A DNA stretch of 64,000 bases from contig CAVXWP010000016.1 in NCBI GenBank assembly GCA_963765495.1, forward strand, positions 128,001 to 192,000, written 5' to 3'. Positions 33,495 to 57,509 of this stretch are shown here, one piece after another (position 1 is the stretch's first letter; each line of letters opens with the position of its first letter). A program made the translations under genes and the position numbers. The notes under the pieces were generated by a model that saw nothing but the letters and a program-made list of their open reading frames with translations, was not told where the DNA came from and did not search any database. The DNA is from Blastocatellia bacterium (GTDB lineage Bacteria > Acidobacteriota > Blastocatellia > UBA7656).

Positions 33495-35555
33495 CTAGCG
33501 ATTCGGATGGCGCGGGAACTTTACAAAGGGCAATCTTATGCCGCGCACGAACACGCGGTCGGCGCGCATCTCAGGCGGAGACTCAAATCCCGTGCTTCCC
33601 ATGGTGGCTATGATGTCGTCCTGATCCACACCGTCGCCGCTCAACCCTATGCCCCCGGCGAGCTTTCCGTTTTTGTAAAGAGGCACGCTGCCCGGAAATA
33701 TCTGGTTTCCGTTTCCGAGATTGAAGAAAGATGTGCAAGGAAAGGCTACCGCGTTGAGCAGAGACCCGACATCCTGCCCGTTGGAATTGAGAAATCTCAG
33801 GATATTGCCGTAATACTCATCCAGCACGAGGTCGAGTTGCAGTCCATCGTGGAAAGGAGAGAAGTCTTCGATAGGCACGGAAAACGGTCCGTGCTCAGTT
33901 TCGTCAATACCGTCCGGGAAGAAAGGCCGGCTGAGGAATCCCCCCGCGCGGTCTGAAAAGGCCACAGTCCCGTCAAGACCAAGCCCGTCTGCGGCAGCCG
34001 CGTCAACATACCTGCCAAGTCCGGCCTGTCGTAGCGTTCGGCCCGCTACGGGGTTGCTGAAGAAGGCGGCTGTGCGCGCCTTTTGCGCCGAAACGTCGAA
34101 ACCGAATATAGGGGCGTCAATCGTGCTGAATATACCCAGTATGGTTCCATCGACATCAACGACGGTCATATTCACCTGTGTAGGGCTATTGAGCGGCTGG
34201 CGAATAGCCGCGCGCGTGATAAAGGCCTGGGCCGCCGCCTGGGTTATCACCTGCAATACGTCGTTGGCCGTAAGCACCGAGCCGTTCTTGAACGGGAAGA
34301 AGCGATTATCCACTCTGCCGGGCGGCACTTTATCAGGGTCTGCGCCGGGCAATGTGATGACTCTGAACCTGGACGGTTGAGCGGGCAGCACGGTTGCCGG
34401 GGCCAGAGGCAACCTGTCGGGATGAGCCGGGTCGGGGGCGTTTGTGCACGGGCCTATCAAAGAGCCGGGCAGATTATCAAACGCCTTGAGCGTAAGCGAG
34501 GCAGGCATCGGCGTGTTGACGTATGGAAACCTGATGCCGTTTACGACTATCTTGTCTCCGGTGATTGCGTCCGGGGCCTCGAAACCGCGCGATGCCGCCA
34601 CCGCTACCAGTTCTTCAACCGGCTGGTCTTTGTCTGTCGGGTCGGGGTCGAGGCTATAGACTCCGTCGCCCTCGATGCCGATTCCGCCGACCTTCAGCCC
34701 GTTCTTGTAAAGCGGTATCCCGCCCGCGTCTGCCGAGAGTCCAAGAGGCGCTCTGGCATTGACATCGCTACAGAGAAACTGCGAAAACTGCACGCCAAAC
34801 AGCGGGCCCCCGGGCTGAAAGTTTACGCCCGGAGGGAAATGCTCCTGTACGATAAAGCTTGCCGTGCGCGTGCTGAATGCGTGTCCGCCGCTGCTTAGAA
34901 ACGATCCCGTGACAGCCTTCGATATGGCAGCCGAGCAGGAAGGAACCTTGACACCCTCAAGCCCGCAATTGGGGAAATCTCCGAAACACCGGGTTCCTAT
35001 GCCTACCACTGTATTTTTGGGAGTGCCGTTCATGGTGAAGTTGGCCAGAATGTTGCCTTCCGCATCAACGACGGCTATCGAAGCTCTCAACCCGCTTGCT
35101 TCGGCCTGCGCCACGGCCTGCGCGATTATGGTCTTGACATCGCTTACGGTAAGGCGGGTGTCGTCGGCCACGCTCACGGCTATATGAGCCGTCACAAAGG
35201 AGCCGTTGGGGTTTGTGACCTTCACATCCACCCCATCGGCGATGTCGGCTTCGGCCACGCTCTTTATTACTATCTTGGTCTCGCCTTTGATCTTAGCATT
35301 GCTAAAGCTGATCGGCCCCGCCGCATTAGTGAGCGTCAGCGCCGCCCCTTTTTGAAAATTCTCTCCCTTGATCGTCAGAGCGCCTTTCCGTGGATTGAAA
35401 GAAGCTTTGTCGGAGAAGATGAGCGGAGTCGGTCCCGACTGCAACCAGGCAAGTGAATGTCCACTCAGGCACACCATACCAATCGCTAGAAAGCAACTCA
35501 GGACTATCAGCGCTCGTCTTCCTGAGCGTTTGCGCTTTACAACCATGTATCTCAT
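33495..35555 (-). CDS. Secreted heme-binding protein with two GlcG/HbpS (DUF336)-like domains and an N-terminal Ig-like domain
   Basis: Two copies of the V..II.QA..QA / VVD..G / KA.T..F.S / GG(I/V)PLYKNG..GGIG..GDG pattern; signal peptide with SGRRAL. Confidence 0.8.
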   Translation of the reverse strand: MRYMVVKRKRSGRRALIVLSCFLAIGMVCLSGHSLAWLQSGPTPLIFSDKASFNPRKGALTIKGENFQKGAALTLTNAAGPISFSNAKIKGETKIVIKSVAEADIADGVDVKVTNPNGSFVTAHIAVSVADDTRLTVSDVKTIIAQAVAQAEASGLRASIAVVDAEGNILANFTMNGTPKNTVVGIGTRCFGDFPNCGLEGVKVPSCSAAISKAVTGSFLSSGGHAFSTRTASFIVQEHFPPGVNFQPGGPLFGVQFSQFLCSDVNARAPLGLSADAGGIPLYKNGLKVGGIGIEGDGVYSLDPDPTDKDQPVEELVAVAASRGFEAPDAITGDKIVVNGIRFPYVNTPMPASLTLKAFDNLPGSLIGPCTNAPDPAHPDRLPLAPATVLPAQPSRFRVITLPGADPDKVPPGRVDNRFFPFKNGSVLTANDVLQVITQAAAQAFITRAAIRQPLNSPTQVNMTVVDVDGTILGIFSTIDAPIFGFDVSAQKARTAAFFSNPVAGRTLRQAGLGRYVDAAAADGLGLDGTVAFSDRAGGFLSRPFFPDGIDETEHGPFSVPIEDFSPFHDGLQLDLVLDEYYGNILRFLNSNGQDVGSLLNAVAFPCTSFFNLGNGNQIFPGSVPLYKNGKLAGGIGLSGDGVDQDDIIATMGSTGFESPPEMRADRVFVRGIRLPFVKFPRHPNR

Positions 35556-36000
35556 CATAACCTCCAAACCCGGTTTGCTTTGGTGGGTGCACTCAAGCCC
35601 CAACACAAAAGCGAGAAAATGCTTAAGGATTTTTAGCGCGGATTTTTGCCATAAGCTGTGTAACGAATCTTGAAGTCAAACGACCGCTTACTGCACCCAC
35701 TCCCTTGTTCGATTGTTCAAACGCGTTGGTTGATCAGCCTTTCTAGCCAAAAGCCTTTCGTGCAATAAGAGCCGAATATTATCTTCCTTAATACCTGCAC
35801 CGCCCAAATCCGGCTGCTTTTGGGCGGGAAGTATAGCTTATGAAAAAAAGCGTTGCAAGCGAAAAGACGAAACGCGTCTCTTTGGCCCTCGTGCGAGGTC
35901 TTTACACAGCCAAATAGACAAAGAATTTTTCTCAAAAATCTTTTCTCAGTGTTTTTGCGCAAAAGTAGCCTGTTTGGGTATTTGCGACGAACTTGCACTC

Positions 36001-36030
36001 TTGACTTTAGCTCTCCTCACATGTTATACC
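36001..36030 (+). promoter_or_regulatory. sigma70-like promoter for the multiheme operon
   Basis: TTGACT-18 nt-TATACC with a TGn extension, within an AT-rich divergent intergenic region. Confidence 0.4.
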
Positions 36031-36196: not shown

Positions 36197-38551
36197 ATGA
36201 AACTGAAGCTATTCATCGTTGCACTCTATGGACTGACTATGCTCGCGCTCGCGGCCCTGTCTACGAGCACATTCGCTTATTCGGGACCGGATGAAGCGAT
36301 TCAAAGCGAGGGTGAGCGAGTCGCCGTCAGATTCGACATTACAGGCAGACGCGGGCTGGTCATGTTTGACCACAAGCAACACGAGGCCCTGATAAACCCC
36401 GATCCGATCTTCCCTCACAAGACGCCGACCGGAGTCGCATGCATTGGGTGTCATCACACGGTCAAGGACATCACAGATCCAAAAGATTTTCAAAAATGCA
36501 CAAATTGTCACAAAGACCCCGGCAATCCCATAAACCCCGATGACAAGGAAGGCTTTGACCTGAACTCGATGCAGGCGTTTCACCGCCTCTGCATCAGTTG
36601 TCACAGGGCCTCGGCGGATGAGGATTTCAGAGCCGCAAGCGACAGATTCAAAGCCAAGAACGTGCGATTTGCCAATGTCGAGCGAACCATCAAATTTACA
36701 AAGTGCGGCGAGTGCCACGACCGCGACGCCACCTTTACTCCTGTAGCCGGAGAGGTGCTCGCTCAGCCTTCGCCCGACGATTCGCCCGATTTCGCACTGA
36801 GACTGAATCGCGCTCCGGCCCCGAGCGAAATCTTTAAGACGCCCTCAAATCCGCAGCTTGGATTCTCAGGGCCGTCAAGCATCGACAGACAGGAACAGAC
36901 CTCGGCCGATGCCGTGCAGGTTCCCGACCGCTGGCGCATAGGCTTTCCCGATGACCCGCGCTACAAACGCGGCGCGTGGTATAACCCCTATCGCCAGAAC
37001 ATCCTCAAAGGCGATTACCCGATCTTCAAGCAGCACAATTTCATGGTTCTGACGCTTGAAAGCGAGACCCTCGTCACCGCCAGGCGCATCCCTGTTCCAA
37101 GCAACGTCAGCGCGCAGAGACCCGATTCCGAAGAGTTCTTTGGCCGGGGCGGGCAAATCTTTACCCGGGAAAATTTCGTCGCCTCGATAGAGATTTTCCA
37201 CGGCGACACCTCCTATAAGCCTATTGATTGGAGATTCCGCTTCACGCCAAACTTCAACATCAATCACCTGAACACGCAGGAGAACTCTCTGGTCAACATC
37301 AACCCGGCTTTTGGAGCAAATCGGCTTGACGGCTATGTGGGATTTCAAGAGCTTTTCGGTGAAATGAGGCTCGGAGACACGACCAAACTACTTCCGTTCC
37401 TCAGAGGCCGGGGAAGCCAGAAAGGCGAAAGCCCGTACTTCGACACCACGTTTATCCGAGTGGGTATACAACAGTTCCAGAGCGATTTCCGGGGATTCAT
37501 CTTCAACGATTTCAACCTCGGAGCGCGACTCTTCGGACAGGCGGCAAATAACCACTACAACTTCAACGCGGCCTATTTTTACCTGCTTGAGAAAGACACA
37601 AACAGCGAATTGAACACCCGCGTAAACCTCGGCGAGTTCAGAGACCAGTCGCTGTTTATCGCCAACGTCTACAAGCAGGACACGATCTGGAAAGGCTACC
37701 AGACACAATTCAGCTTTCACTTCAACAACGACCGCCCGAGCAGGCACTTCGACGAAAACGATTTCCTTGTGCGCCCCGCCCTTATCGGAGACGCGGCCCC
37801 GCACGGAATCAAGTCTTACTACCTGGGATTTACGGGCGACGGCCACATAGGAAAGCTCAACATAGATCACGCCTTCTATCAGGTTCTGGGCCACGACACG
37901 CGCAATCCGATTGCCGGGCGCGAGGTTGACATAAACGCTCAGATGGCCGCAGCCGAGCTTTCTATTGATCGAGACTGGCTCAGGTTCAAAGGGTCGCTCT
38001 TCTTCGCTTCGGGCGATAAGAAACCCTTTGACGGCACGGCCCGTGGCTTTGATTCGATTGTGGATTTGCCGGAATTTGCGGGAGGCAAATTCAGCTTCTG
38101 GCAATTCAACCCCATCCCCTTCACAAACACGGCTGTACTTTTGACCCAGCCCGAAAGCCTGCTGCCGAACCTTCGCAGCAGCAAGACCGAAGGACAATCC
38201 AACTTTGTCAACCCCGGCATCTTCATCTACAACGTGGGAATCGAGGCGGAGATGACGCCAAAGCTCCGGGGCATCCTGAACCTGAATTACTCGCATTTTC
38301 ATCACACCGAAACGCTCGAACAACTGGAATTCCAACCGGGCATCCGCCGCGACATAGGGATTGATTACGGCGTTGGGGTACTGTATCGCCCGCTTTTGAA
38401 CGAGAACATCGTCATTGCAGGCGGGTTCTCGTCGCTGATCCCCGGCAAGGGGTTCGAAGACATCTATAGCTCTAACTGTAGCGGACAAAATTGCGGGTTC
38501 GCCACGAAGACCCTGTTTTCGACCTTTGTGAAGGTGAAAGTCATTTACTGA
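36197..38551 (+). CDS. Tetraheme class III cytochrome c3 domain fused to a predicted outer-membrane beta-barrel
   Basis: Signal peptide; FDHKQH, CIGCHH, CTNCH, AFH..CISCH, CGECH; then ~550 aa of aromatic-rich amphipathic beta-strands ending FVKVKVIY. Confidence 0.8.
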
Positions 38552-38594
38552 TTTCGACAAGGCGTTGTGTAGTCATTCGCGTTGGGAGATAGAG

Positions 38595-41500
38595 ATGAAC
38601 GTACGTACCAGTAGCGGTCTCAAACTGTCGTTGATCCTGTTGGCAGTCTGCCTTTACACCTTTATCAGTTTCGCCGACACAACCCCCTCTGCGCGGCCTG
38701 CTTCTCCGGCAAAAGAGACCGGCAAGACGAAGGCAACCGATACGAAAGCGACTGAGGCGAAGGCAACTGAGGCGAAGGCAACTGAGGCGAAGGCCGCGGC
38801 GAAGGATTCGGCCAGTAATTCTGCTTCGGCGAAAAAGGATACCGGGAAGGAGTCAAAAGCCCCGGCCTCTGCCGCGCAAAACGCAGGTGGCGCCAAACTC
38901 TGGGGCATGACCAAAGAAGAGGCCGACCGCCGCAGCGCGGGCTGCAATGACTGCCACACCGGTATCGAAGACATGCACAACGGGGCGATAAACCTCGGCT
39001 GCATTGACTGCCACGGCGGCAACGCGGATGTCCGGGCGCAGGGCCTCTCGATGGGGTCAGCCCCCTACAACGAGGCGAAAAAACAGGCGCACGTTCAGCC
39101 GCGCCTCCCCGATCTCTGGAAGACCTCCGCCAATCCCGAACGGTCTTATACAGCCATACTCAGAGAGAGCCAGGAGTATGTTCAGTTCGTCAACCCCGGC
39201 GATCTGCGCGTTGCGCGCCGAAGCTGCGGGGTAGCCGAATGCCACCCCGGCGATGTGCACAACGTCAAGAAGAGCATGATGACTACGGGCAGCATGCTCT
39301 GGGGCGCGGCGCTCTACAACAACGGGTCGTTCCCGTTCAAGGATGCTCAATACGGCGAAAGCTATGACGAGGACGGCAAGCCTCAACGCCTGCAAACGGT
39401 CCCTTCTCCCACGCCCGAAGAGACTCACAAAAAAGGCATTCTCCCCTTTATAGACCCGATGCCCAGATGGGAAGTCTCTCAGATGGGAAACATACTGAGG
39501 ACATTCGAGCGCGGCGGGCGCAAGTCCGCAGAGATAGGCAATCCCCAGCCGGAAGAGCCTCCGGGAAAGCCCACGCAAAACCTTCTGAGCCTCAGAGGGT
39601 TGGGAACCCTGCTCGCCACAGACCCGACCTTTATCGGTCTGCAAAAGACTCGCCTGCTCGACCCGACGCTTAATTTCATGGGGACCAATGACCAGCCGGG
39701 TGACTATCGCTCAAGCGGCTGCACCTCCTGTCACGTCATCTATGCCAATGACCGCGACCCTTACCATTCGGGGCCGTTCGCAAAATACGGCCACACAGGG
39801 TTAAGCGCCAGCGCCGACCCGACCATCCCGAAAAACGAATCGGGGCACCCGATAAAGCACCAGTTTACGCGAGCCATTCCGAGCAGCCAGTGCGTGGTCT
39901 GTCACATGCACCCCGGCACGCTCGTGCTGATGACCTACTACGGCACGATGTGGTGGGATCTTGAGACGGACGGCGAGAAGATGTATCCCAAAGAGCACAA
40001 AGAACTGAGCGCGGAAGAGGAACGAACCATCCTCCAGCGGAACCCGGAAGCGTCGTCGCTCAGGGGTAAATGGGGCGATCCCGAGTTTCTTAGGAACCTC
40101 CGCGAAGAGGTCAATCCCGATCTCAAACACACGCAGTTTGCCGACTTCAACGGTCACGGATGGGTCTATCGAACCACATTCAAAATGGACCGTAAGGGAA
40201 ATTATCTGGATGCCAACGGCGATATCGTCAAGGATGTAACATCGGAAAAACTCAAGAAGGCCGTCGAAGACCCTTATGATGAAAACGCCGATCGCTCAGG
40301 GATTCCCGTTCATCTGAAAGACATTCACCTCGAACGCGGGATGCACTGCATAGACTGTCACTTCCGACGCGACAGCCACGGGAACGGAAATCTCTACAGC
40401 GGGCCTCGCAACGCCATAGAGATTTCATGCGAAGACTGTCACGGCACTATAGACAAACGCGCCGACCCGACATCTCTTGATGCGCGAACATCGGCAGCCG
40501 CGGGCGGCAACCGCATGCTCGAATACCGCAAGGTCTCTCCGCTCGGCGATAACCCGGCCTTAAAGAAAGACAGGTTTTTCAAGAAAGACGGCAAGCTTTT
40601 CCAGCGATCGGCGGTCGAAGCCGACAAGACGTGGGAGGTTAAACAGCTTGTTGACATAATCACGCCGGGCAACCCCGAATACAACGAGAAGGCGGCGCTT
40701 GCCAAGACCGTGCTAAAGGACGGAAAGACCTGGGGCACGGTGCCCGCAGATGATCGCAATCTCGCGCACGCAAACAGCAAGATGACATGTTTTGCGTGTC
40801 ACATGTCGTGGACGCCAAGCTGTTTCGGATGTCACCTGAAGCAGACCGCAAATCAACAGCGCGCGATGCTGCACAACGAAGGCGATGAGGAACTGCGAAA
40901 TTATGTGACCTATAATTTCCAGACCCTCCGCGACGATGTCTTCATGCTTGGGAAAGACGGCACGGTAACAGGCAAACGGTTTGCGCCCATCAGATCGGCA
41001 TGCGCCGTTCTGGTCAGTTCCAGAAACGCCCTTCGCGAATACCTCTACTGGCAGCAGCAGACCGTATCTCAGGAAGGCTACAGCGGGCAGGCGTTCAGTT
41101 CTCACTTCCCGCACACGGTCAGGACCACCGAGACAAAAGGATGCACCGATTGCCATCTGTCTAAGGAAAATGACAACAACGCATACATGGCCATGGTGTT
41201 GATGCAGGGGACGAATTTCTATAACTGGATAGGGCGATACGTCTATGTCGCCACAGGCGAAGGCGGTTATTCGGCCATCGTCGCCACCGAGCGCGAGGAA
41301 CCGCAGGCCGTCATCGGCAGCCATCTGCATAAACTGGCCTTCCCCGAGGAGTACAAGAAACACCAGGAAGACCACGAGGAGCTTCACGAATTTTACGAGC
41401 ATCCGGGCAACGATATAGGCAACTCGCTCAAGCTTTTCGGCAAGGACAAGACCGAAGTGCAAAGCCTTCAGCTTCGCGGCGAATACCTTTATGCCGCGAC

Positions 41501-42944: not shown

Positions 42945-43035
42945 CTCGTGATTCGTGATTGACCAAACTTGCAAGATGCCTTTGACATGCAGGCTTCTTA
43001 AAAGTCACGAATCACGAATCACTCTTCACGCATCA
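42941..43035. repeat. Family A element (copy 3); includes the TGA stop of the decaheme gene
   Basis: gTGActcgtgattcgtgatt-gaccaaacttgcaagatgcctttgacatgcaggcttcttaaaa-gtcacgaatcacgaatcactcttcacgcatca. Confidence 0.85.
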
Positions 43036-43050
43036 GATCGAGGGATTGAT

Positions 43051-43608
43051 ATGAGATTGAAGCTGGCTGTTCTTACGATATACGCGCTAGGCGTGATTAC
43101 GCCCGCGGCTTTGATGGCCGGACCCGCTGCCTCCGAGGATCAGGGCAACAGGGACAGCTATCAGAGTAAGAACCCCATTATCATGCTCAACACCAAGGGC
43201 GTGCGCACGCGCGGCCCTGTGCGCTTTGACCACGACGAACACGATTCGCTCATCAATCCCGACCCGAATAATCCTCACCCGGCTAAAGAGGGCGCGGCCT
43301 GCATAGGATGTCATCACACGGAGGACGCGCGCGGCATCGTGCAGTTGTGGAAATGCACTTCGTGCCACAAGACCGAAGGCGGGGGCGACGGGAAATTCAT
43401 AAACACAAAGAACAAGGACTGCGATCAATCGGGCAATCCCAAGAATCGCGAATGCGACGAGGTCTATTTCGAGCGGGCCTTTCACGACAAATGCATAAGC
43501 TGTCATATAGCGTCGAATAAAGAGTTCACCCTGAAGCAACCCGCGCCCGTGACGTGCGGCGGCTGCCACGAGTCTTTAGGAGCGAGCGCGGCCATGAATT
43601 CTAAATAG
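43051..43608 (+). CDS. Periplasmic tetraheme cytochrome c3 (class III)
   Basis: Signal peptide; FDHDEH, CIGCHH, CTSCH, AFHDKCISCH, CGGCH. Paralog of the N-terminal domain of 36197-38551. Confidence 0.88.
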   Translation: MRLKLAVLTIYALGVITPAALMAGPAASEDQGNRDSYQSKNPIIMLNTKGVRTRGPVRFDHDEHDSLINPDPNNPHPAKEGAACIGCHHTEDARGIVQLWKCTSCHKTEGGGDGKFINTKNKDCDQSGNPKNRECDEVYFERAFHDKCISCHIASNKEFTLKQPAPVTCGGCHESLGASAAMNSK

Positions 43609-48374: not shown

Positions 48375-51300
48375 ATGGCCAAGAACATATTCATCATCAA
48401 AAGGACGGATAAGGATAGCGGCGTTGACGATGTCGTTATCGAAAGCGAAGGCTTAACCATAGGACGGCTCGTCGGTAACGACCTCGTCCTAAACCACAGG
48501 GCCGTGTCCAGAACCCACGCCGGGATAAAAGAGATCAACGGCGAATTCTGGATATTCAATCTCTCAACCTCTAACGGGACGGTGCTAAACGGCCAACTGG
48601 CTGACAAGACGCCGCTCGCCGACGGGGACGTGCTTCAGATAGGCCCTTATATGCTCGTGATTGAATACGGCAAGAACGCGCTCTCGATAATCGTTCAAAG
48701 AGAGATCGAGGTCAATCCGCTCGAGGCATATGGAGCGGCGCAGTCGGCAGGCGCGGACGAAACCGGAAAGACCATGATGATCCAGATACCGGGTCTTGCG
48801 GGCAAAATTCCGGGCGGCACAAAAAGCATCAGAGGCACAGGGCTTCTCGGCAATGTGCTTCCCTCGATGGATCAGGCGGCGCTCGATGTCTTCTGGGAGA
48901 AGAGAAAAAGAGAGGCAGGCAAGATCGCCGAAGTCACGCCGCTTCATCCGAAGGGGGGCGAACGACTCGGGAGAGCCAGAAACAACTGGCGTCCTACGGT
49001 TGATCTGCGGAGGCTGTGGCGCAAGTCTTACTTCTATCTTGGCGCGGCCGTCGTCGTGTTGCTTTCGATTATCGCGATAATCATCTATGAGAGCGCATAT
49101 TCGCCCGGCTCGCTGGCCGACCCGCACGTGCGCGCGATGGATCAGAGCGCGCTCTTTACGCGAAATATCGCCAGCCGCGAAAACGCCAATTCGTGCTCCA
49201 CGTGCCACGGCGTCACAACAGGTATGCTCGACAACTGCATAACCTGTCATACGACTACGACCACGGGCGCGAGCGGCGCGACGAAGGCCGGGTTTTTGCC
49301 CCGCACCCTGATCGCAGGGCACAATAATCAGAACCTCGTATGCACCGACTGCCACATCGAGCATCAGGGGAGAGATGTTACAGCGGGTCTTGTGAGCTAC
49401 CGCCTCTGCTACAACTGTCACAACGGCGTTTACACGATCAAGAACGCGGGCAAGATCGGGCCTGCCGGTTCTGTGCTCCCCATTCCGCACGGCGGCAAGA
49501 CCGGATACACGGAACTGAGCACCGAGACAAAAGGCGGAAAATACTGGCCGGGGCTTTCCGCCGCGAGATGGGAAAAATCTATCGCCCGGTGGAGGGCGAA
49601 AGACCCCAACATCATCGCCGACGCGAAGAGTCTGGAAAACAGCCCCTCAAATCAGCAGTTTCACAAACTGCACCTCGGCGGCATAGGAATAGAAGGCAAG
49701 CAGAACAACCAGATATGCGCCATATGCCACTTCGATCAAAGCGGCAAAAATCTCGACACACAGACCAATTACGGTTTGCACGAAGCGCCGCGCCTGTCCT
49801 GCGCCAAGTGCCATACGGTCTCATACACGGTCGCGGGGGCAGCAAGTCAGGTCCCGGCAAGTTGCGAGACCTGTCATCAACAGCACGGCGCTGACGAAGG
49901 CATCCTCAACACGGCAAAGATCGTAGCCGACCCCGGCAAAGAACAGGAGTTTCTGGCTTCGCTCAACAAACCCGCGGCGGGACTCGAAAGTGGATTCCTG
50001 CCCTCGGCCGGGGCCATTGGAAGCGCCGATGTGATAAGGCAGAACAGAGATGTGGTCAGCCTTTCAAGCGCCGCTTCCAGTTTCGGCGCGCTTCCCTGGT
50101 ACGGGTGGGTGGCGGTCATCGGCATCATCCCCATCGCGGGTCTCGTCTTTATGTTCACCGACACGGCCCGCCGCAAATCTTATTTGAAGACGACTAAAAT
50201 AGAGGTCAAACCCGAGGATGAGGCGGCACTTGCGCTGACGGGTCTGCTCGACCTCGACAAACTGAAAGAGCAGGGACCGGCCTATCCTCACCCGGTCATA
50301 AACCAAATGACGTGCATAGGCTGTCACGCCTGCGTTGATGCCTGCCCTCACGATGTACTGGCAATCGTCAACGGAAAGTCTACGCCCATCGCGCTCGATC
50401 AGTGTATGGAAGACACCGCCTGTCAGGTCGAGTGCCCTACAAGTCCAAAATCCTGCATAGTAGTAAACACCAAGAAAGTGATTCCGCCGCGCAAGGTCCC
50501 GGCTCGTGACGGGCGGTTGGAGACCAACGTGCCGGGCATATATATGACGGGAGACGTTTCGGGTACGCCGCTTATCAAGAACGCCATAAACGAAGGGCGG
50601 AGGGTGATCGATTCCGTCAAGGAAGACCTTGAAAAGAACGGGCGCGCTCCGGGGGCGGATTATGATGTGGCAATCGTAGGATGCGGTCCGGCGGGATTGT
50701 CTGCGACGGTCCTTGCCAAAATAGAGGGGCTGAGTTATATCGCGGTGGAACAGGATCGTCTGGCCGGAATGATTCAGGAAGTCTATCAGGCAGGCAAGTT
50801 TGTCTTTTACACACCCGCCGATAAAGAAGTGGTCGGCGGCGTCCCGCTCCTCCCAGACCCCGACAAGCCCGAAGGAAATCTGAAAGAGAACATGCTCAAG
50901 GGCTGGTTCGACGCGATGATGCAAAACGGCGTGGTTGTAAATGAAGAGGAAGGATGCCGGGCGGTCAAGAGCGAAAACGGGTACTTCGTTCTTTCGACCG
51001 AAAAGGGCAAGTCGAAACAGAAGGTGGAGTACAAGGCTCGCAAGGTGATTCTCTCCATCGGCAATCGCGGAGCACCGATGAAACTCGGCGTTCCGGGCGA
51101 AGACCTAAAGATAACCGTCACGCCTCCGCCACAGATCGCCAATCACTGCCCGAAATGCGGGATGGCCCGCAAAGGCACCCAGCTTTTCTGCGTTCAGTGC
51201 GGGCAGCAACTCCCTTCAAAGACCCTGCCGCCTTTCGAGGACGACAGAGTGCAATACAAGCTCTCTGACCCGAAAGACTATGTCAACCGCAAGTGCATAG

Positions 51301-51674
51301 TCGTGGGCGCGGGCAATTCGGCCATAGAGGTAGCCGTAGGTCTTACAGGGTTTGAGCGCGACGGAGACAAGATCAATTTCACAAGCGACAACGAAGTCAC
51401 TTTGATCGTCCGCTCGGATTTCAAAGGAGACCTCGCTTTAGGAAACAAGATGAACGTCTATGATTGCATAGACTCGGGCCGCATGAAGGCATATTTCGGA
51501 TGCGGGATCAAAGAGGTGCTGCCCGGCGAGGTAGTCATAATGAACGCTCGCACAAAAGAAGAGAAGGCCCGCATCCCGAACGACTATATCTTCGCCCTGA
51601 TCGGTGCCGAAAAACCCATAAAATTCCTCGAAAGCATGGGCGTAAAGATCGGCGCGGAGGCAAAAAAGGGATGA
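48375..51674 (+). CDS. FHA + TM + heptaheme cytochrome c + TM + 2x[4Fe-4S] ferredoxin + thioredoxin-reductase-like FAD/NAD(P)H oxidoreductase fusion
   Basis: IGR..SRTH..SNGT FHA; 7 CxxCH between two TM helices; CIGCHACVDACP and CMEDTACQVECP; ETNVPGIYMTGD, VGCGPAGLSA, VVGAGNSAIEVA; inserted CPKC..CVQC ribbon. Confidence 0.85.
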   Translation: MAKNIFIIKRTDKDSGVDDVVIESEGLTIGRLVGNDLVLNHRAVSRTHAGIKEINGEFWIFNLSTSNGTVLNGQLADKTPLADGDVLQIGPYMLVIEYGKNALSIIVQREIEVNPLEAYGAAQSAGADETGKTMMIQIPGLAGKIPGGTKSIRGTGLLGNVLPSMDQAALDVFWEKRKREAGKIAEVTPLHPKGGERLGRARNNWRPTVDLRRLWRKSYFYLGAAVVVLLSIIAIIIYESAYSPGSLADPHVRAMDQSALFTRNIASRENANSCSTCHGVTTGMLDNCITCHTTTTTGASGATKAGFLPRTLIAGHNNQNLVCTDCHIEHQGRDVTAGLVSYRLCYNCHNGVYTIKNAGKIGPAGSVLPIPHGGKTGYTELSTETKGGKYWPGLSAARWEKSIARWRAKDPNIIADAKSLENSPSNQQFHKLHLGGIGIEGKQNNQICAICHFDQSGKNLDTQTNYGLHEAPRLSCAKCHTVSYTVAGAASQVPASCETCHQQHGADEGILNTAKIVADPGKEQEFLASLNKPAAGLESGFLPSAGAIGSADVIRQNRDVVSLSSAASSFGALPWYGWVAVIGIIPIAGLVFMFTDTARRKSYLKTTKIEVKPEDEAALALTGLLDLDKLKEQGPAYPHPVINQMTCIGCHACVDACPHDVLAIVNGKSTPIALDQCMEDTACQVECPTSPKSCIVVNTKKVIPPRKVPARDGRLETNVPGIYMTGDVSGTPLIKNAINEGRRVIDSVKEDLEKNGRAPGADYDVAIVGCGPAGLSATVLAKIEGLSYIAVEQDRLAGMIQEVYQAGKFVFYTPADKEVVGGVPLLPDPDKPEGNLKENMLKGWFDAMMQNGVVVNEEEGCRAVKSENGYFVLSTEKGKSKQKVEYKARKVILSIGNRGAPMKLGVPGEDLKITVTPPPQIANHCPKCGMARKGTQLFCVQCGQQLPSKTLPPFEDDRVQYKLSDPKDYVNRKCIVVGAGNSAIEVAVGLTGFERDGDKINFTSDNEVTLIVRSDFKGDLALGNKMNVYDCIDSGRMKAYFGCGIKEVLPGEVVIMNARTKEEKARIPNDYIFALIGAEKPIKFLESMGVKIGAEAKKG

Positions 51675-51813
51675 GGGATGAGGGATGAGGGATGAAAAGG
51701 ACTGTAGGGAATTATGCTGATGAAATGGTGAGCGGCTTTTTATCAGGGTGTCGCGCTAAACTCTTTTCATCCCTCATCCCTCCTGAAATCCCTCCGAAGT
51801 TCCTTCATCCTTT
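51668..51813. repeat. Family C element (copy 2); includes the TGA stop of the FHA-heme-flavoreductase gene
   Basis: gggaTGAgggatgagggatgagggatgaaaagg ... cttttcatccctcatccctcctgaaatccctccgaagttccttcatccttt. Confidence 0.88.
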
Positions 51814-51871: not shown

Positions 51872-52642
51872 TTGAAAGTCAGACTTCTGCCGAGCAGCGC
51901 GGGGCGACATTCCCAGGAGCAGTCGCTAACCAGTTTCCTCATAAACGATCTGGTTTCGATTGACGGCGGCAGCATTGGATTTGCCCTGACGCCACCTGAA
52001 ATGGGCAAGGTCCGAGACATCGTGATAACGCATACGCACAGCGATCATCACGCATCTTTGCCTATTTTCATAGCCGAAGCATTCACAATGCTCGACGGAC
52101 CCGTTACGATTTACGGCCTGCCGGAAGTGATCTCGGCGTTGAGGGAGTTTATATTCAACGACAAAATATGGCCGAACTTCGAAAAGATTCCGCTTATGAA
52201 CGGCAAATCTTCTACGATAGAGTTTCGCGTCTTAGAGCCGAGAGAGACGATCGAGATTGCGGGGCTGCGCGTGACGCCAATACCCGTAAATCACCTTGTT
52301 CCGACTATCGGATTGCTGGTCGAGGACGACGGGGCCGCCGTGATCTTCACCTCCGATACTTACGTGACGGACGAGATATGGCAGCGCGGCAGAGAGAGCG
52401 AAGAGCTAAAAGCCGTCTTTGTTGATATTTCATTTCCGAACGAGCTTGGCAAACTTGCTGCCGACTCCAAGCACCTGACCCCTGAGTTGCTTGCCGGAGA
52501 GCTGAAAAAACTGAACCGGGATGCCGAAGTCTTTGCGGTCCATATCAAGCCTACCAACAGGGATCAGGTAATTCACCAGCTTGGCCTGCTCGACAATCCG
52601 CTTGTTTCAGTGGCCGAAATCGGGCGGGTTTATGAGTGGTAA
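51872..52642 (+). CDS. Class II 3',5'-cyclic-nucleotide phosphodiesterase (metallo-beta-lactamase fold)
   Basis: LTSFLIND.VSIDGG, ITHTHSDHHA, FIFNDKIWPNF, PVNHLVPT, FTSDT, SFPN..A..SKHLTP, HIKP; GGGAGG RBS before TTG. Confidence 0.85.
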   Translation: MKVRLLPSSAGRHSQEQSLTSFLINDLVSIDGGSIGFALTPPEMGKVRDIVITHTHSDHHASLPIFIAEAFTMLDGPVTIYGLPEVISALREFIFNDKIWPNFEKIPLMNGKSSTIEFRVLEPRETIEIAGLRVTPIPVNHLVPTIGLLVEDDGAAVIFTSDTYVTDEIWQRGRESEELKAVFVDISFPNELGKLAADSKHLTPELLAGELKKLNRDAEVFAVHIKPTNRDQVIHQLGLLDNPLVSVAEIGRVYEW

Positions 52643-52693
52643 CTGACGGGTGGTAATTGCCCCAGACCGGTCGCCGCAGAATTTGAAGATGTT

Positions 52694-54319
52694 ATGTCTC
52701 TAAAACTATTAATAAGAAACACCGAAACAGGACAGGTAACCGAGAACGTATTGTCTGCCCCCGAAGTGCGGATAGGCCGGTCAGCCGAATATAACGACAT
52801 AGTGCTTGACGACTCTCAGGTCTCGCGCCGACACGCGATGCTACAGCGACTGGGCAGTTCATACATGCTTGTGGACCTAAACAGCGCCAACGGCACCTTC
52901 GTTGACGGTGAGCGGATCAAAGACCGCATCCTCAACGACGGCAATTCGTTTTCAATCAGCAAGTACACGCTCACATACAAGAGCGAAGGAGCGGTTGCCG
53001 TCAAATTCGACAACCAGCGAATCGGCAACACCGTACTGCTGCGCAACCCGGAACAGGTCGCGGCAAGTATAGCGCAACTGGATAAGTCTGTTATCTCTGA
53101 AGCCGCGGTTGATTCCAAGGACTTGCTCGAAGACATAGAAGCGCTCAGGAAAAAAGCGGAAACGCTGTCGCGCCTCTACGAATTGAATCAGATGCTCGGG
53201 TCGGTCTTTTCGCTCGAAGACATATTCAAGAAAGTAAGCGAGATGTTGTTCCGTCTGACGCCGGCCGACCGTTTTCTGGTTCTGTTGAAAGACACGGGCA
53301 CGGGCAAGCTCTCTCCGGTAGCCACGGAATTCCGCATACAGGCGGGCCGGTTGATAGCCGGTGACATATCGGTCTCTCAGACTGTGATGGACCGCGTCTT
53401 AAACGAGCGAATGTCGCTGCTCTCCTTCGATGCGCAGGGCGATGAGAGGTTGAAATCGTCTCAGTCCATCATCATGCAGAATATCCATTCGGTTATGTGC
53501 GCTCCTTTGCTTGGCAAAAACGGCGTGCTGGGTGTCGTCTATGTCGATTGCCTGCAAATCATTCAGACCTTTAAGGAAGACGACCTTGAATTATTGAATG
53601 CGCTCGCGGCTGAGACCGCCATAGCCGTCGACAACGCCATAACACACGAGCAACTGGTCAGAGAAGCCCTGGCTCGCGCTACCTATGGCCGCTTCATGCC
53701 CAAGCACGTGGTTGATGCAATACTGGCCAACCCCGATCAGATAAGCATGGGAGGGTCAAACGCCCTCGTTACCATGCTCTTTTCCGACGTTCGCGGATTC
53801 ACAAGCATGTCTGAGAATCTGCCGCCTGAGACCGTAGTCCAGATGCTTAATGAGTATTTTGGCGATATGGCTCCAATTGTATTCGAGTATCAGGGTTTGC
53901 TCGACAAGTATATCGGAGACGGTTTGATGGCGCTCTTCGGCGTGCCTTATCAAAACGAAAAATCTGCCACAAACGCCGTGGCCGCCGCCGTAACCATGCA
54001 ACGCCAGATGGAAAAGGTAAACAAAGAACTAACGAATAGAGGGCTTGCTGAAATCGCCATCGGGATAGGCATAAACACTGGAACGGTGACGGTCGGCTAT
54101 ATAGGTTCGGAAGAGCGGACCGATTATACCGCGATTGGCGACGCGGTCAATCTGGCTGCGCGATTGGAAAAAGAAGCGGGCCGAGGTCAGATAATAATCA
54201 GTTATTCCACGCTCGAAGCAATCGGAGACGGCTTTCCCGTAAAGCCAAAAGGCGAAGTGCTTGTAAAGGGGAAGCGAGAAGCGGTTAAGATTTATGAGGT
54301 TCTCTGGCAGGAGGCCTGA
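52694..54319 (+). CDS. FHA-GAF-class III adenylate cyclase
   Basis: IGRS..SRRH..ANGT; GAF (SVMCAPL..GVVYVD..F.EDDL); FSDVRGFT, DKYIGDG, DYTAIGDAVNLAARLE with Lys/Thr adenine-specifying residues. Confidence 0.92.
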   Translation: MSLKLLIRNTETGQVTENVLSAPEVRIGRSAEYNDIVLDDSQVSRRHAMLQRLGSSYMLVDLNSANGTFVDGERIKDRILNDGNSFSISKYTLTYKSEGAVAVKFDNQRIGNTVLLRNPEQVAASIAQLDKSVISEAAVDSKDLLEDIEALRKKAETLSRLYELNQMLGSVFSLEDIFKKVSEMLFRLTPADRFLVLLKDTGTGKLSPVATEFRIQAGRLIAGDISVSQTVMDRVLNERMSLLSFDAQGDERLKSSQSIIMQNIHSVMCAPLLGKNGVLGVVYVDCLQIIQTFKEDDLELLNALAAETAIAVDNAITHEQLVREALARATYGRFMPKHVVDAILANPDQISMGGSNALVTMLFSDVRGFTSMSENLPPETVVQMLNEYFGDMAPIVFEYQGLLDKYIGDGLMALFGVPYQNEKSATNAVAAAVTMQRQMEKVNKELTNRGLAEIAIGIGINTGTVTVGYIGSEERTDYTAIGDAVNLAARLEKEAGRGQIIISYSTLEAIGDGFPVKPKGEVLVKGKREAVKIYEVLWQEA

Positions 54320-54416: not shown

Positions 54417-56045
54417 TCAAGCGCCGGCCGCGTTTCCCAGACCGAAGAATTTTATTATCCGGGCGAAGATGTCCTTCTGCGCGTGGCCCATGCGACTGGC
54501 CGTGGCTTCGGCATCAAGCCCGTCGCGGGCCGCTTCGTATTCCGTTCGGCGTCGCGCAAGCACATGAGATATATACTCGGCTATCTCGGGGCGCTTGAGC
54601 AGGATGTCGTGAAAGGCTTCTTTGTCCAGCCGGTAACATTCCACGTCTTCGAGCGCCATAACCGTAGCCGACCTCTTTTCCCCGGTCATCAAAGACATCT
54701 CTCCAAAAAAATCTCCGGGGTGCAAAACGGCAAGGCTGCGAGTCTGTCCGCTCTCAATCGAAAGAGTGACCTCCGCCACTCCTTCCGTGATGATGTAGAG
54801 CCAGTGTCCTTCGGCTCCCTGTCTGGTAATCGCCTCGCCCTTTGTGAACGGAGCGGGGACGAGTCGCTCGGCAAGCACCCGGCGCTCTTCATCGCTCAGA
54901 GTATGGAACAGGTCTACACCTGCAAGCGCGGCAAGACGACCCTCGATCTCGCGTTCCTGTTTTCTGCCCCTTCGCTTCTCGGTCTCTTCTGTGACAAAGA
55001 CGCTCTGCGCGGGGATAGAGAGCGGAATCCCGGCGCGTTTGAGCGCGAAATATATCCGCGTGCGAACTATGGAGTCGGTCGGGTCATCCACGGCCAGGTC
55101 GGTCAGCCAGTACCGCGCGGCATAGTAACAGAAACTCTCTTTGAAATCATAAAGTATGCAATGAATCTTAGGCTCGGCGGCGACCCGCTCTATCGGTTCG
55201 GCCTGGAGCGCCTCGTTTACTATCGAGATGACCTGGGTCGGCGGGACGCGAAAGTCCACGTTGAAATAGACCCACTGGCGATGCTGCGTAGCCTGCCCGG
55301 TCCTGCGGCCCAGCACCGTGACCTGCCCTTTCATCAACATGCTGTTTGGGAAAATGATCGTGTCCCAGTTGCGCGTCTCAATCGAAGTGTGCCGCCAGCG
55401 TATCTCTTTTACCTTCCCGACATTTTGATCAATCTTCACCCAGTCGCCGACGTTTATAGTCTTTTCCAGTTGCAGTGCCAGCCCGCCCATGATGTTGCCA
55501 AGCGTATCCTGAAGCGAAAAGGCGATCACAGCCGTCAGCACCGCCGATGTCGTGATTATGTCTGAAAGACTCAATCCCCCGTGCCAGAGCAACCCCATTC
55601 CAACCATGATATAGCCTAAGGCTACAAGCAGGTCGCGGAGTATTCGAGGCGTGTGAACATGGATCAGATTGAGCAGGATATCGAATATGAATATGCTCGC
55701 AAGATTTACGATTGCAATCCCGCCTATCAACAGCCCCGTGTTGAGAGTAAAGTTGCTGGACGATTTTGCTCCACTCGATTCGAACAGGCTCGATGCCGAA
55801 ATCAGCACAAGCGCCAGCAGGAAAAACCAGCTTGCCGCCCGAATGCGAGAGCGCGCGGCAGGCACATATTTCACAAGCAAGATCGCGACTACGGCAAACG
55901 TCGCGGTCACAGGCAATACGTTGTGTTTGGAATAGACGGCGCGCAAATCGTTCCAGAGGCTCGATAGATTCAGCCCTGCGGAGTCTTGCAGAACGGCAAT
56001 CGTAAGAAGGTAAAACGGTTTCTGAAGAGAGACGAAAAAATCCAT
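54417..56045 (-). CDS. MscS-family channel with C-terminal cNMP-binding domain
   Basis: TSAVLTAVIAFSLQDTLGNIMGGL, VGDWV, IRWRHT, FPNS; FFGEMSLMTGEKRSATV. Confidence 0.9.
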   Translation of the reverse strand: MDFFVSLQKPFYLLTIAVLQDSAGLNLSSLWNDLRAVYSKHNVLPVTATFAVVAILLVKYVPAARSRIRAASWFFLLALVLISASSLFESSGAKSSSNFTLNTGLLIGGIAIVNLASIFIFDILLNLIHVHTPRILRDLLVALGYIMVGMGLLWHGGLSLSDIITTSAVLTAVIAFSLQDTLGNIMGGLALQLEKTINVGDWVKIDQNVGKVKEIRWRHTSIETRNWDTIIFPNSMLMKGQVTVLGRRTGQATQHRQWVYFNVDFRVPPTQVISIVNEALQAEPIERVAAEPKIHCILYDFKESFCYYAARYWLTDLAVDDPTDSIVRTRIYFALKRAGIPLSIPAQSVFVTEETEKRRGRKQEREIEGRLAALAGVDLFHTLSDEERRVLAERLVPAPFTKGEAITRQGAEGHWLYIITEGVAEVTLSIESGQTRSLAVLHPGDFFGEMSLMTGEKRSATVMALEDVECYRLDKEAFHDILLKRPEIAEYISHVLARRRTEYEAARDGLDAEATASRMGHAQKDIFARIIKFFGLGNAAGA

Positions 56046-56075
56046 CCGGGTCAGCCCCTTTGCCTGATCGTTTAA

Positions 56076-57509
56076 TTAACCGAGTTTGAAGAATCGCTGA
56101 ATGCGGCGCAACACGGTCTCTCTTTGCATGCGTTTTTCGCTTTCAGGGACACTGTGCGCATATTCGGCGAGACGCGCCTGCCGGTCGGCGATCTTGTGAG
56201 AGAAAGCCTCGACCAGTTTGTCATTCTCGTTGAACAACTGCTCGATGGCCTGCTTTCTTATTTCGAAGATCTCGACTTCTTCCAGGGCGTTGACATCCGC
56301 CGTCCTGGGTTCGCCCGTGAAAAGCGCCATCTCTCCAAAGAAATCGCCCGCTGCAAGCACGGCCACGCGCTGAGATTGACCATTCGAACCCGAGACTTTA
56401 ACCTCGGCCTTGCCTCGATAAATTATAAACATCGAATCGCCTTCATCGCCGCGATGCAGAATCTCTTCGCCGGGAGCATAAATGTATCTGGCCAGCGAAT
56501 GGGTCAGCACAGTCCTCTCTTCATCCGTGAGCGGCTCGAAAATTTCTACCGACCGGATCACCTTATCATAGTCGGTCTCGTCGCGCTTCACCTCTACCTT
56601 CTGCCTCTCAAACAGGACGTGCCGCACGGGGAAGGGGATATGCAGATCGTTGCGGCTGAAGAGATACCATATTCGCTCTCTGATTTGCGCATCCATATTC
56701 GGGGTCCACATATAATCCTTGACCCAGTAGAGGACTTCATAGGTTACGCTCGATTCCGAAAACTCGTGGATACGCACAACGGGGATTTTTTCAGGCGAAA
56801 CCCTCGGCATAGTGCGGACGGTTTCGCGCACAAGCGGGATCACCTTTTGCGGGGGGGTCGCATAAGGAGCCGGGAACCGCAGCACGCGCCGGTTGAGGCC
56901 GTGCAGCGGGTATATTTCAAGCGGCTCGCGCGCGATCTTGCTGTTTGGGAATATGATGACGCTGTTGTTGTTTGTGCGAATGGCGGTCGTGCGCCATGTT
57001 ACCGATTCCACCTTGCCGAGCATATCGCCCATTCGAATCGCGTCACCGATGTAATAAGGCTGCTCGACGTGCAACGACAACCCGGCAAAGAAATTTCCCA
57101 GCGTGTCCTGTAATGCGAGACCGATGATAACCGTGACGACAGCCGATGTTGCGAGCACTCCGCTCAGGTCTTTCTTAAAGACAAAGCTATAGATGACAAC
57201 AAAAAGCGCCGAATATCCGATTATCGAAATCACAAGGCGAAGCAGTGCGGGCGCTTCGCGTCCCTTTCGCTTCTGAAAGATTATGTCAAACAGCACATAG
57301 CTTACGGCTCGGACTACTGTCACGCCGATGCTTATGACCAGCACCGTTTGAAAGTACACATAGCCCTGGATATCCATCAAGCCGTGGGCAAAGAGTCTGA
57401 GGATGATATAGATCAGGCCCAGCAGCAGGCTGACGGTAGCCGTCACTGTCAGCCTTTTCAGCGCCGAATTAGAGTCTTCCATTGCCTGATTGCTCGTCAT
57501 CTCATTCAC
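56076..57509 (-). CDS. MscS-family channel with C-terminal cNMP-binding domain (paralog)
   Basis: TSAVVTVIIGLALQDTLGNFFAGL, IGDAI, VTWRTT, FPNS; FFGEMALFTGEPRTADV. Confidence 0.9.
   Translation of the reverse strand: MNEMTSNQAMEDSNSALKRLTVTATVSLLLGLIYIILRLFAHGLMDIQGYVYFQTVLVISIGVTVVRAVSYVLFDIIFQKRKGREAPALLRLVISIIGYSALFVVIYSFVFKKDLSGVLATSAVVTVIIGLALQDTLGNFFAGLSLHVEQPYYIGDAIRMGDMLGKVESVTWRTTAIRTNNNSVIIFPNSKIAREPLEIYPLHGLNRRVLRFPAPYATPPQKVIPLVRETVRTMPRVSPEKIPVVRIHEFSESSVTYEVLYWVKDYMWTPNMDAQIRERIWYLFSRNDLHIPFPVRHVLFERQKVEVKRDETDYDKVIRSVEIFEPLTDEERTVLTHSLARYIYAPGEEILHRGDEGDSMFIIYRGKAEVKVSGSNGQSQRVAVLAAGDFFGEMALFTGEPRTADVNALEEVEIFEIRKQAIEQLFNENDKLVEAFSHKIADRQARLAEYAHSVPESEKRMQRETVLRRIQRFFKLG

Follow-up and report, generated by a model that had tools for sequence, protein, structure and literature searches.

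Candidate envelope-spanning electron conduit with cyclic nucleotide and FHA receiver domains encoded by a conserved gene cluster of Blastocatellia

To our knowledge, the known porin–cytochrome conduits draw on quinol dehydrogenases and carry no cyclic nucleoside monophosphate (cNMP)-binding or FHA domains. Here we describe a cluster of 12 genes (G0–G11) at positions 33495–57509 of a window from a soil bacterium of the class Blastocatellia (Acidobacteriota), the window being the whole 64,000-nt stretch of DNA that was analysed (GCA_963765495.1, contig CAVXWP010000016.1, positions 128,001–192,000 of the forward strand). The cluster encodes periplasmic multihaem proteins, a putative outer-membrane protein, and a candidate surface multihaem protein together, as is the case for MtrCAB, Pcc OmaB/OmbB/OmcB, and Ext. 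However, its proteins do not belong to the MtrA/DmsE, MtrC/OmcA, or Ext families of NCBIfam (23–34 bits vs 209 for TIGR03507, 26–28 vs 192 for TIGR03508, and 84 vs 800 for a local match of G2 to ExtM), and since all NCBIfam matches of the redox proteins are below the cut-off, none of them falls into a curated named family. The cluster is a real, conserved, and uncharacterised fused variant of the porin–cytochrome systems. Our preferred reading, to which we give slightly less than an even chance, is that it forms an envelope-spanning electron conduit peculiar to Blastocatellia that works outward as a regulated electron-disposal or reductive valve.

The closest published description, with a similar parts list, appears in the available text of a 2024 preprint (bioRxiv 10.1101/2023.11.21.568154), which describes ptdABCDEFG as an uncharacterised operon of marine or saline Alpha- and Gammaproteobacteria, Nitrospirales, and Planctomycetes and proposes that it encodes a porin–cytochrome complex of unknown function. 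It encodes a porin, pentahaem, tetrahaem, and decahaem proteins, an oxidoreductase of the FAD/NAD(P) type, a 4Fe-4S protein that binds cNMP, and a membrane protein resembling ferric reductases. Compared by these descriptions only, the two systems differ in three respects. The cNMP/iron–sulfur and membrane parts are one protein (G6) in the window; PtdC is called flavohaemoprotein-like, but the window flavoprotein has a thioredoxin reductase (TrxR)/YpdA fold and shares one chain (G7) with a ferredoxin, a heptahaem domain, and an FHA domain; and the window adds a fusion of cytochrome c3 to a putative outer-membrane domain, an LVIVD decahaem protein, an HbpS-like protein, an adenylate cyclase, and a phosphodiesterase (PDE). 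Judged by its parts list, the window cluster looks like a fused, elaborated relative or analogue of Ptd. A first-pass annotation of this DNA had allowed for similar uncharacterised clusters in other genomes, as this operon illustrates, and had named no characterised system with the same architecture; the literature that we searched likewise contained no characterised multihaem or iron–sulfur conduit bearing cNMP or FHA domains, and it mentioned the ptd operon in that one paper only. The available text of a preprint on peat, which reports porin–cytochrome clusters in Terriglobia (Acidobacteriota), contains none of the terms FHA, cyclic nucleotide, and 4Fe-4S.

What could be read directly were the domains and motifs, the topology (by hydropathy), the conservation, and the gene linkage. 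The map of open reading frames (ORFs) gives the same 12 genes and coordinates as the first-pass annotation, with nine co-directional genes on the plus strand (G1–G9, 36197–54319) flanked by G0 and by G10 and G11 on the minus strand, and Pfam supports each domain named there. The genes G1 to G5 are separated by 10–65 nt, and the gaps before G6, G7, G8, and G9 are 161, 50, 197, and 51 nt. A strict count of CXXCH in the six cytochrome proteins gives 42, whereas shuffles (n = 500) averaged 0.17 and never exceeded 2. Eight of these lie in G7, but the one at residue 647 opens a CX2CX2CX3C iron–sulfur (ferredoxin) motif, leaving seven haem sites. The c-haem motifs also total 42, the number first reported, as 41 CXXCH and one CX4CH (4 in G1, 9 + 1 in G2, 4 in G3, 8 in G4, 9 in G5, and 7 in G7), and with matches to Cytochrom_CIII, Cytochrome_C7, and related Pfam families they place these proteins in the multihaem c class (c3/c7).

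To collect relatives, G6 was scanned against one genome per species; 204 stretches matched, 168 of which encode relatives, and the best 80 were kept. The scan reaches close relatives, and other phyla lie beyond its range. All 80 relatives are full-length, with identities of 49–82%, and come from metagenome-assembled genomes (MAGs) labelled Blastocatellia, Pyrinomonadaceae, Chloracidobacterium, or Acidobacteriota, with a few labelled Clostridia, Heliobacteriaceae, or "bacterium". In L009, L017, L019, and L023 (related loci are numbered with the prefix L), the MAGs are labelled Clostridia/Heliobacteriaceae, yet G6 nests among Acidobacteriota in the tree; judging from this placement, these contigs are probably mis-binned or mislabelled.

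The conserved heart of the cluster would be an inner-membrane pair of G6 and G7. A homologue of the N-terminal half of G7 follows G6 on the same strand in all 73 loci with at least 700 nt of room, and in 64 cases the distance is no more than 300 nt. In a quick maximum-likelihood tree (80 rows, with support from the Shimodaira–Hasegawa-like approximate likelihood ratio test, SH-aLRT), G6 splits into two groups: a 50-row clade of Pyrinomonadaceae type, in which G7 ends after the haem domain (N-only clade) and the flavoprotein is missing from the locus, and a 30-row clade with the flavoprotein. In the latter, the flavoprotein is fused to G7 in 21 rows, the window among them, and encoded by a separate downstream gene in 9, this gene keeping the transmembrane (TM) helix and the Fer4 part along with the flavoprotein. 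Because the flavoprotein occurs both fused and split, in the manner of a Rosetta stone, it appears to be functionally tied to the G6–G7 pair. The NAD(P)H link is a clade-level trait and not a universal one. Two loci carry an inserted gene: in L032, an AAA+ (AAA_2) ATPase gene (13960–15255) stands between the N-terminal half of G7 and the separate flavoprotein gene, and in L013, an IS200-like transposase ORF (12358–12993) stands between G6 and G7.

G6 is an 812-residue protein (residue numbers count from 45886). Its cNMP module is present in all 79 aligned homologues. The phosphate-binding cassette of cNMP-binding domains is defined as FGE...R-x-A, and the first domain of G6 carries FGEMSVLAGVPRNATV, in which G110 is invariant and E111, R120, and A122 are conserved in at least 90% of 80 sequences. 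The N-terminal tandem fold matches the regulatory subunits of protein kinase A (PKA) (Foldseek E 2.6e-13), and when the entire G6 model was searched with Foldseek, only the cNMP module was matched. Sixteen Cys, at C333–C343, C379–C391, C411–C421, and C473–C497, are invariant in 80 sequences and assign the next domain to the four-cluster [4Fe-4S] superfamily of DmsB/NrfC/NarH (Fer4_11, 30.6 vs a cut-off of 26.2); it is no equivalog of a named subunit (ArrB, 57 bits vs 450). By hydropathy, G6 has no signal peptide and has five hydrophobic helices after the iron–sulfur domain. The cNMP and iron–sulfur domains are therefore predicted to be cytoplasmic, and the orientation is fixed by an Arg-rich loop after helix 2 and a long basic helical insert before the last helix. 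H616, H630, H788, H802, and H778 are invariant in 80 sequences. The first four form two pairs, H616/H630 and H788/H802, each 14 residues apart, in the predicted third and fifth helices, an arrangement expected of a di-haem protein; the above orientation would bring H616 and H788 close to the inner face and H630 and H802 close to the outer one. The AlphaFold2 model of the TM domain has a mean predicted local distance difference test score (pLDDT) of 87 and a predicted TM-score (pTM) of 0.73. Below the Pfam thresholds, the 80 TM-domain homologues matched DUF4405 (16/80), Ni_hydr_CYTB (13/80, best E 1.6e-4), and Cytochrome_B (5/80), and an Atlas match to "ferric reductase like transmembrane component" (0.84) serves as a lead only.

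With sixteen Cys in four ferredoxin motifs beside two His pairs on two helices, G6 resembles NarGHI and FdnGHI, from which it differs in that its parts lie in one chain, there is no catalytic Mo subunit, and the periplasmic partner is a multihaem c protein. The resemblance raises the alternative that electrons pass between the membrane domain and the quinone pool, as with NarI, FdnI, and CbcL, quinol then feeding the c haems and the iron–sulfur/flavoprotein part being a side branch or a second entry. The layout of G6 is indeed of the NarHI type, a four-cluster iron–sulfur domain on the cytoplasmic face with a di-haem b anchor; its best NCBIfam matches are the complex iron–sulfur molybdoenzyme (CISM) beta subunits ArrB, DsrO, and DmsB; and the large clade without the flavoprotein needs another donor. 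However, no similarity of the TM domain to NarI, FdnI, b561, or any other quinone-reactive b cytochrome was detected, Pfam finds no quinone-related genes in the cluster, and the fusion of the flavoprotein–ferredoxin to the haem subunit (16 loci) argues for direct feeding. We consider a quinone-linked G6 unlikely. The sulfate reducers wire a periplasmic c3-type cytochrome through a membrane b cytochrome to a cytoplasmic iron–sulfur protein in TmcABCD and HmcABCDEF, and the window cluster would follow the same order; it differs in its taxon, in having no CCG-domain protein by Pfam, and in adding the flavoprotein, cNMP, FHA, and outer-membrane parts. The logic of NAD(P)H, flavin, two b haems, and an external acceptor is also that of NOX/FRE, in which the His pairs likewise lie on the third and fifth helices, but in the window six iron–sulfur clusters would stand in between, the flavoprotein has the TrxR fold, and Foldseek gave no match to NOX or STEAP structures.

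The second member of the pair, G7, matches FHA, cytochrome c7/c3, Fer4, and Pyr_redox_2/3 in Pfam. Hydropathy and the distribution of basic residues predict a cytoplasmic FHA domain, a TM helix at 217–245, the haem domain outside, a second TM helix at 572–598, and the Fer4 and flavoprotein parts inside. The seven CXXCH and seven further His are invariant in 56 sequences, and the eight Fer4 Cys are invariant in the 16 full-length ones. The Arg, Ser, and Asn of FHA domains have roles in binding phosphothreonine; in G7, all 56 sequences keep G30 and R31 and at least 90% of them keep S45 and N67, and the FHA domains of G7 and G9 have Pfam E values of 2.4e-14 and 1.4e-18. The nearest relatives of the flavoprotein in the Protein Data Bank (PDB) are YpdA-type reductases (7a76, E 2.5e-13; TIGR04018, 121 bits vs 340). 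We considered a bacillithiol- or thioredoxin-type disulfide reductase and rejected it, there being no conserved active-site Cys and no CXXC in the flavoprotein part; the one Cys close to the FAD motif, C770, is conserved in 6% of the 16 sequences. Given its fusion to a ferredoxin and the missing active-site Cys, the flavoprotein is best taken as a putative NAD(P)H:ferredoxin-type reductase. Also invariant in the 56 sequences is a juxtamembrane stretch on the cytoplasmic side of G7 (F173, W174, R177 ... W205, T208, D210, L211). Within residues 165–215 (window 48870–49010), its T-x-D-L may be an FHA-binding phosphosite, for docking to itself or a neighbour, or a contact with G6.

Complex prediction with the G6 TM domain and G7 residues 160–600, a check that the first-pass annotation had proposed, supports the pair weakly: the score was 0.40, and the best of three controls scored 0.00. 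In the calibration, 58 of 80 solved complexes attained the mark, as did 2 of 110 mismatched pairs, and scores of 0.60 or less belonged to 7 of those 80 and to both passing mismatches. The runs share at least 52% of contacts, with a partner pLDDT of at least 58. Because their adjacency is invariable, G6 and G7 likely bind each other.

The outer module consists of G0–G5. The first-pass annotation described G1 as a fusion of cytochrome c3 and a beta-barrel, of which the c3 domain stands and the barrel is putative. Residues 1–139 of G1 are a paralogue of G3, matching the G3 position in related loci at 37–42% identity. The C-terminal part (~580 residues) ends in ...VKVKVIY, homologues of the other clade end in ...LKLVF, and the aromatic end is conserved; an Atlas match to an Alginate_exp cluster (0.95) is a lead, and the crude beta-amphipathicity is z 2.1, compared with 2.4 for a Pfam-confirmed outer-membrane protein. 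In its layout, a c-type cytochrome fused N-terminally to a putative outer-membrane domain, G1 is similar to Cyc2, which acts in Fe(II) oxidation, but it has four c3-type haems where Cyc2 has one. In the surface candidate G2, the signal sequence is followed by a KATEA-type low-complexity linker (38700–38810), and the protein ends in a TM helix with an RRRNKK tail (42850–42944); this C-terminus resembles a sorting or anchor signal, and the NCBIfam match to "choice-of-anchor B" is weak (21.5 bits vs a cut-off of 100). G0, which is divergent from G1, has an N-terminal hydrophobic segment at 28–53 by hydropathy. Ten loci of the fused clade extend at least 9.5 kb upstream, and eight of them carry G1–G5 in the window order. 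N-only loci have the partner genes downstream, on the opposite strand. These genes encode 4-, 9-, and 9-haem cytochromes, the double HbpS-like G0, a 270-aa protein that matches no known family, and, in divergent orientation, a G1-like protein, which has CarboxypepD_reg in place of the c3 domain of the window. Of the N-only loci with at least 8 kb of flank, 16 of 17 have G0, adjoining the G1-like gene, and 14 of 17 have the G1-like gene. Thus, the inner and outer modules are kept together across the class despite rearrangement.

In the mechanism that we propose, the four [4Fe-4S] clusters of G6 would sit on the cytoplasmic face, joined to a five-helix domain holding one b haem near each face, and G7 would be anchored beside G6 with seven bis-His c haems facing the periplasm. 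In the lineage of the window, the second helix of G7 would lead back to the cytoplasmic two-cluster ferredoxin and the TrxR-fold flavoprotein. Electrons would flow from NAD(P)H to FAD and the iron–sulfur clusters of G7, through the four clusters, the two b haems, and the seven c haems, and then through the periplasmic 9-, 8-, and 4-haem cytochromes to the tetrahaem domain of G1 and the surface decahaem protein G2. The chain would probably comprise about 50 iron cofactors between the cell interior and the surface, and a wire from the cytoplasmic face to the outer membrane is plausible; we infer the loading of the cofactors, the G6–G7 complex, the direction of flow, the bypass of quinone, and the gating. 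By chemiosmotic reasoning, outward flow would skip the proton pumps and spend NAD(P)H and membrane potential. This cost suggests a valve for electron disposal or reduction and not a main respiratory chain, and since such a valve should stay shut unless needed, it would make sense that receiver domains lie on the entry proteins G6 (cNMP) and G7 (FHA). In the sub-clade of the window, the neighbouring adenylate cyclase and PDE would set the level of cAMP.

A donor is suggested by a pentose-phosphate operon, glk-opcA-zwf-gnd-pgl, which abuts the window cluster in convergent orientation (57502–63997, minus strand). In L012, zwf-opcA directly follows the cyclase gene on the same strand (17917–21067); L014 has pgl-opcA-zwf (18855–22472) and L022 has gnd on the same strand (13552–14994); and glk and opcA adjoin the locus in L002, L004, L005, L007, and L020. 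No pentose-phosphate genes adjoin the loci of the other two clades. All such loci belonging to one clade, the possibility that these genes are the NADPH source of the conduit is suggestive only. The opposite direction has also to be weighed, that is, an extracellular or periplasmic donor such as Fe(II) or reduced humics feeding the c and b haems and then the cytoplasmic iron–sulfur and reductase parts, generating membrane potential as NarGHI does. A wire of haems and iron–sulfur clusters is reversible in principle, fused cytochrome–porins such as Cyc2 work in iron oxidation, and the N-only clade has no NAD(P)H enzyme at the locus. However, the cluster lacks a gene for a cytoplasmic terminal reductase, and its sole enzyme on that side is the TrxR-fold NAD(P)H-type flavoprotein; reduction of NAD(P)+ from such donors would be strongly uphill; and the NADPH-producing neighbours suit outward flow better. 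We consider an inward conduit highly improbable.

Turning to the signalling genes, G9 aligns with the Cya2-derived cyclase 6fht (E 1.9e-50) and with 2w01. Its DKYIGD, to be compared with DEFMGD in cyclase 2w01 and DKFMGD in 6fht, an engineered adenylate-cyclase form, identifies it as a class III adenylate cyclase; we take the Lys to be the purine/substrate-specifying position. The FHA domain of G9 carries GR, SRRH, and NG and is shared with the N-terminal FHA domain of G7 (29% identity, E 3e-12). G8 matches PDEase_II/Lactamase_B_2, the PDEase_II match spanning only profile positions 82–166 of 340; its THTHSDH aligns with the HxHxDH of yeast PDE1 (4ojv), the best PDB match (E 6.4e-7), and it scores 29 bits against NCBIfam NF041851 (cut-off 400). 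On this partial evidence, G8 is a putative class II PDE-like metallo-hydrolase. Canonical cNMP cassettes are present in G10 and G11, and FGE...RSA is visible in the sequence of G10. The single corresponding gene of L002, L004, L005, L007, and L020 is matched by G11 at 58–59% identity and by G10 at 29–32%. G10 is a window-specific extra paralogue with no close counterpart in the related loci.

The first-pass annotation placed receptor domains for cAMP and phosphothreonine on the cytoplasmic entry, beside a cyclase and PDE of its own, and named conserved co-occurrence with cyclase and PDE genes across phyla as what would support it. The receptor domains proved to be integral, and the robust signalling link is that they are fused to G6 and G7 family-wide. 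The cyclase and PDE are lineage-specific, and such co-occurrence did not appear in the neighbourhood comparison of close relatives: among the 55 loci with at least 2.5 kb after G7, a cyclase homologue was found in 11 and a PDE in 10. Their linkage is consistent with a single origin, as one evolutionary event within one class.

A number of results weigh against a regulated, NAD(P)H-fed outward conduit. The first-pass annotation drew a path from NAD(P)H to the outer membrane, of which the parts and the topology hold up as a plausible wire, but in the 50-row clade, G7 is ~465–490 aa long, has no second helix, and has no flavoprotein in the flank, so that entry from NAD(P)H is not universal. The second cNMP domain of G6 has no Arg-containing cassette in the consensus of 80 sequences, and the AlphaFold2 model of the iron–sulfur domain is unreliable (pLDDT below 50). 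The membrane domain is a putative di-haem b domain, haem b binding being deduced from the sequence, and may have a quinone site; it has no Pfam match at threshold, its best hit in the PDB profile search was a caspase (E 0.42) with nothing relevant found, its model gave a best Foldseek E of 0.58 with TM scores of at most 0.28, and hhalign showed no similarity to E. coli MsrQ or YodB (probability 0.2%). The C-terminal ~580 residues of G1 form a putative beta-barrel: Pfam on 20 homologues and the PDB profile search matched the c3 domain only, and the Pfam-confirmed OMP_b-brl_4 protein of L032 showed no relation to this part (hhalign probability 0.6%). Cultured Blastocatellia are mostly aerobes, which makes the need for a conduit unclear. 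All cyclase and PDE loci fall inside one 14-row sub-clade of the G6 tree (SH-aLRT 98), and given the strong hairpin between G7 and G8, which has a 25-bp stem, these two genes may belong to separate transcription units. The hairpin could be a terminator, an attenuator, or a repetitive extragenic palindromic (REP)-like element.

The last two points also favour the explanation that the PDE, the cyclase, and the MscS-cNMP channels are mere neighbours in one sub-clade and that the cNMP module of G6 answers to cNMP from elsewhere or is structural. So does the fact that L009, L013, and L022 have a fused G7 and no cyclase or PDE within about 6 kb. On the other hand, the cyclase shares its FHA domain with G7, L012 keeps the cyclase though the PDE and the channels are gone, and the cassette residues of G6 are conserved; we rate this explanation as somewhat doubtful. 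The strongest form of regulation would be that cAMP on G6 and phosphothreonine recognition by the FHA domain of G7 directly open and close a quinone-independent, NAD(P)H-fed path through both membranes, an "electron valve". We regard this as fairly unlikely; if it were true, a second messenger would control an electron-transfer chain post-translationally and not via transcription. In L014 (16617–18737, minus strand) and L055 (about 7469, plus strand), the G7 homologue has a Ser/Thr protein kinase gene as its direct neighbour, and this kinase might write the mark that the FHA domains would read; the 45 ORFs scanned in the window include no such kinase. In Shewanella, cAMP is likewise tied to extracellular electron transfer: as far as the available text goes, cAMP-CRP controls the Mtr genes at the level of transcription (PMC4417206), in contrast to the window, where the cNMP module lies within the electron-transfer protein itself and not in a transcriptional regulator.

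The density of signalling domains (cNMP, two FHA, GAF, cyclase, PDE, and two cNMP-gated MscS-type channels) might instead suggest a sensor, in which the cofactor chain reports the extracellular redox state to cAMP and Ser/Thr-phosphorylation networks and carries no metabolic current, and HbpS-like proteins are redox-stress sensors in Streptomyces. However, cNMP-binding and FHA domains receive and do not output, no redox-cofactor domain is present on the cyclase, which 44 of the 55 loci with flank lack, and 42 c haems with an outer-membrane protein and a surface decahaem protein exceed what a sensor needs. We think a sensor very improbable.

Blastocatellia and Pyrinomonadaceae are abundant in soils and crusts and are not known to exchange electrons with minerals or humic matter. 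The cluster, with relatives in 168 species-level genomes, is a concrete conserved candidate for such exchange. The entry module differs from the quinol dehydrogenases that Shewanella and Geobacter use in that a cytoplasmic iron–sulfur/flavin donor would lead to a putative di-haem b domain and on to periplasmic c haems, with receiver domains on the same polypeptides. If the gating were true, it would be the first case found in which the target of a second messenger is a bacterial electron-transfer protein itself, and it would offer a compact genetically encoded switch for bioelectrochemical engineering. The fused proteins may also help, like a Rosetta stone, to interpret the Ptd-type clusters of marine bacteria, which are uncharacterised.

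Table 1. Genes and other features of the cluster, in window coordinates
Feature	Position	Strand	Assignment	Evidence
G0	33495..35606	−	two HbpS/GlcG-like domains, exported or anchored	Pfam HbpS-like E 1.8e-17, two stretches
G1	36197..38551	+	signal peptide, tetrahaem c3, and ~580-aa putative outer-membrane domain	4 CXXCH; Cytochrom_CIII E 1.2e-8
G2	38565..42944 (alternative start 38595)	+	1459-aa LVIVD-repeat decahaem protein	9 CXXCH and 1 CX4CH; LVIVD E 5e-16
G3	42955..43608	+	tetrahaem c3-type cytochrome	4 CXXCH; Pfam class III cytochrome c
G4	43674..44693	+	octahaem periplasmic cytochrome	8 haem motifs; Pfam
G5	44714..45724	+	nonahaem cytochrome	9 haem motifs; Pfam
G6	45886..48324	+	PKA-R-like tandem cNMP, four-cluster [4Fe-4S], and putative 5-helix membrane domain	Pfam cNMP_binding x2 and Fer4 families; hydropathy
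G7	48375..51674	+	FHA, TM, heptahaem c, TM, two-cluster ferredoxin, and TrxR-fold flavoprotein with Zn-ribbon insert	
Hairpin	51673..51790	+	GGGATGA-repeat hairpin between G7 and G8	minimum free energy −81.1 kcal/mol; z −4.8; 0/200 shuffles as stable
G8	51872..52642	+	metallo-beta-lactamase-fold hydrolase, class II cNMP phosphodiesterase-like	PDEase_II E 1.1e-15
G9	52694..54319	+	FHA-GAF-class III adenylate cyclase	Pfam FHA, GAF, and Guanylate_cyc E 2e-30
G10	54417..56045	−	MscS-type channel with C-terminal cNMP-binding domain	Pfam MS_channel and cNMP_binding
G11	56076..57509	−	MscS-type channel with C-terminal cNMP-binding domain	Pfam MS_channel and cNMP_binding

An Rfam scan of the window found no RNA family. 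Just upstream of G0, on the plus strand, lie genes for a DUF4331 protein and a signal-anchored truncated globin (Bac_globin) (31165–33325); the flanks of the related loci are too short to place these two genes in or out of the cluster. Farther away, the alanyl-tRNA synthetase gene (3720–6454, minus strand) is split into two overlapping ORFs, 6104–6454 and 3720–6113, which points to a frameshift or an assembly error.

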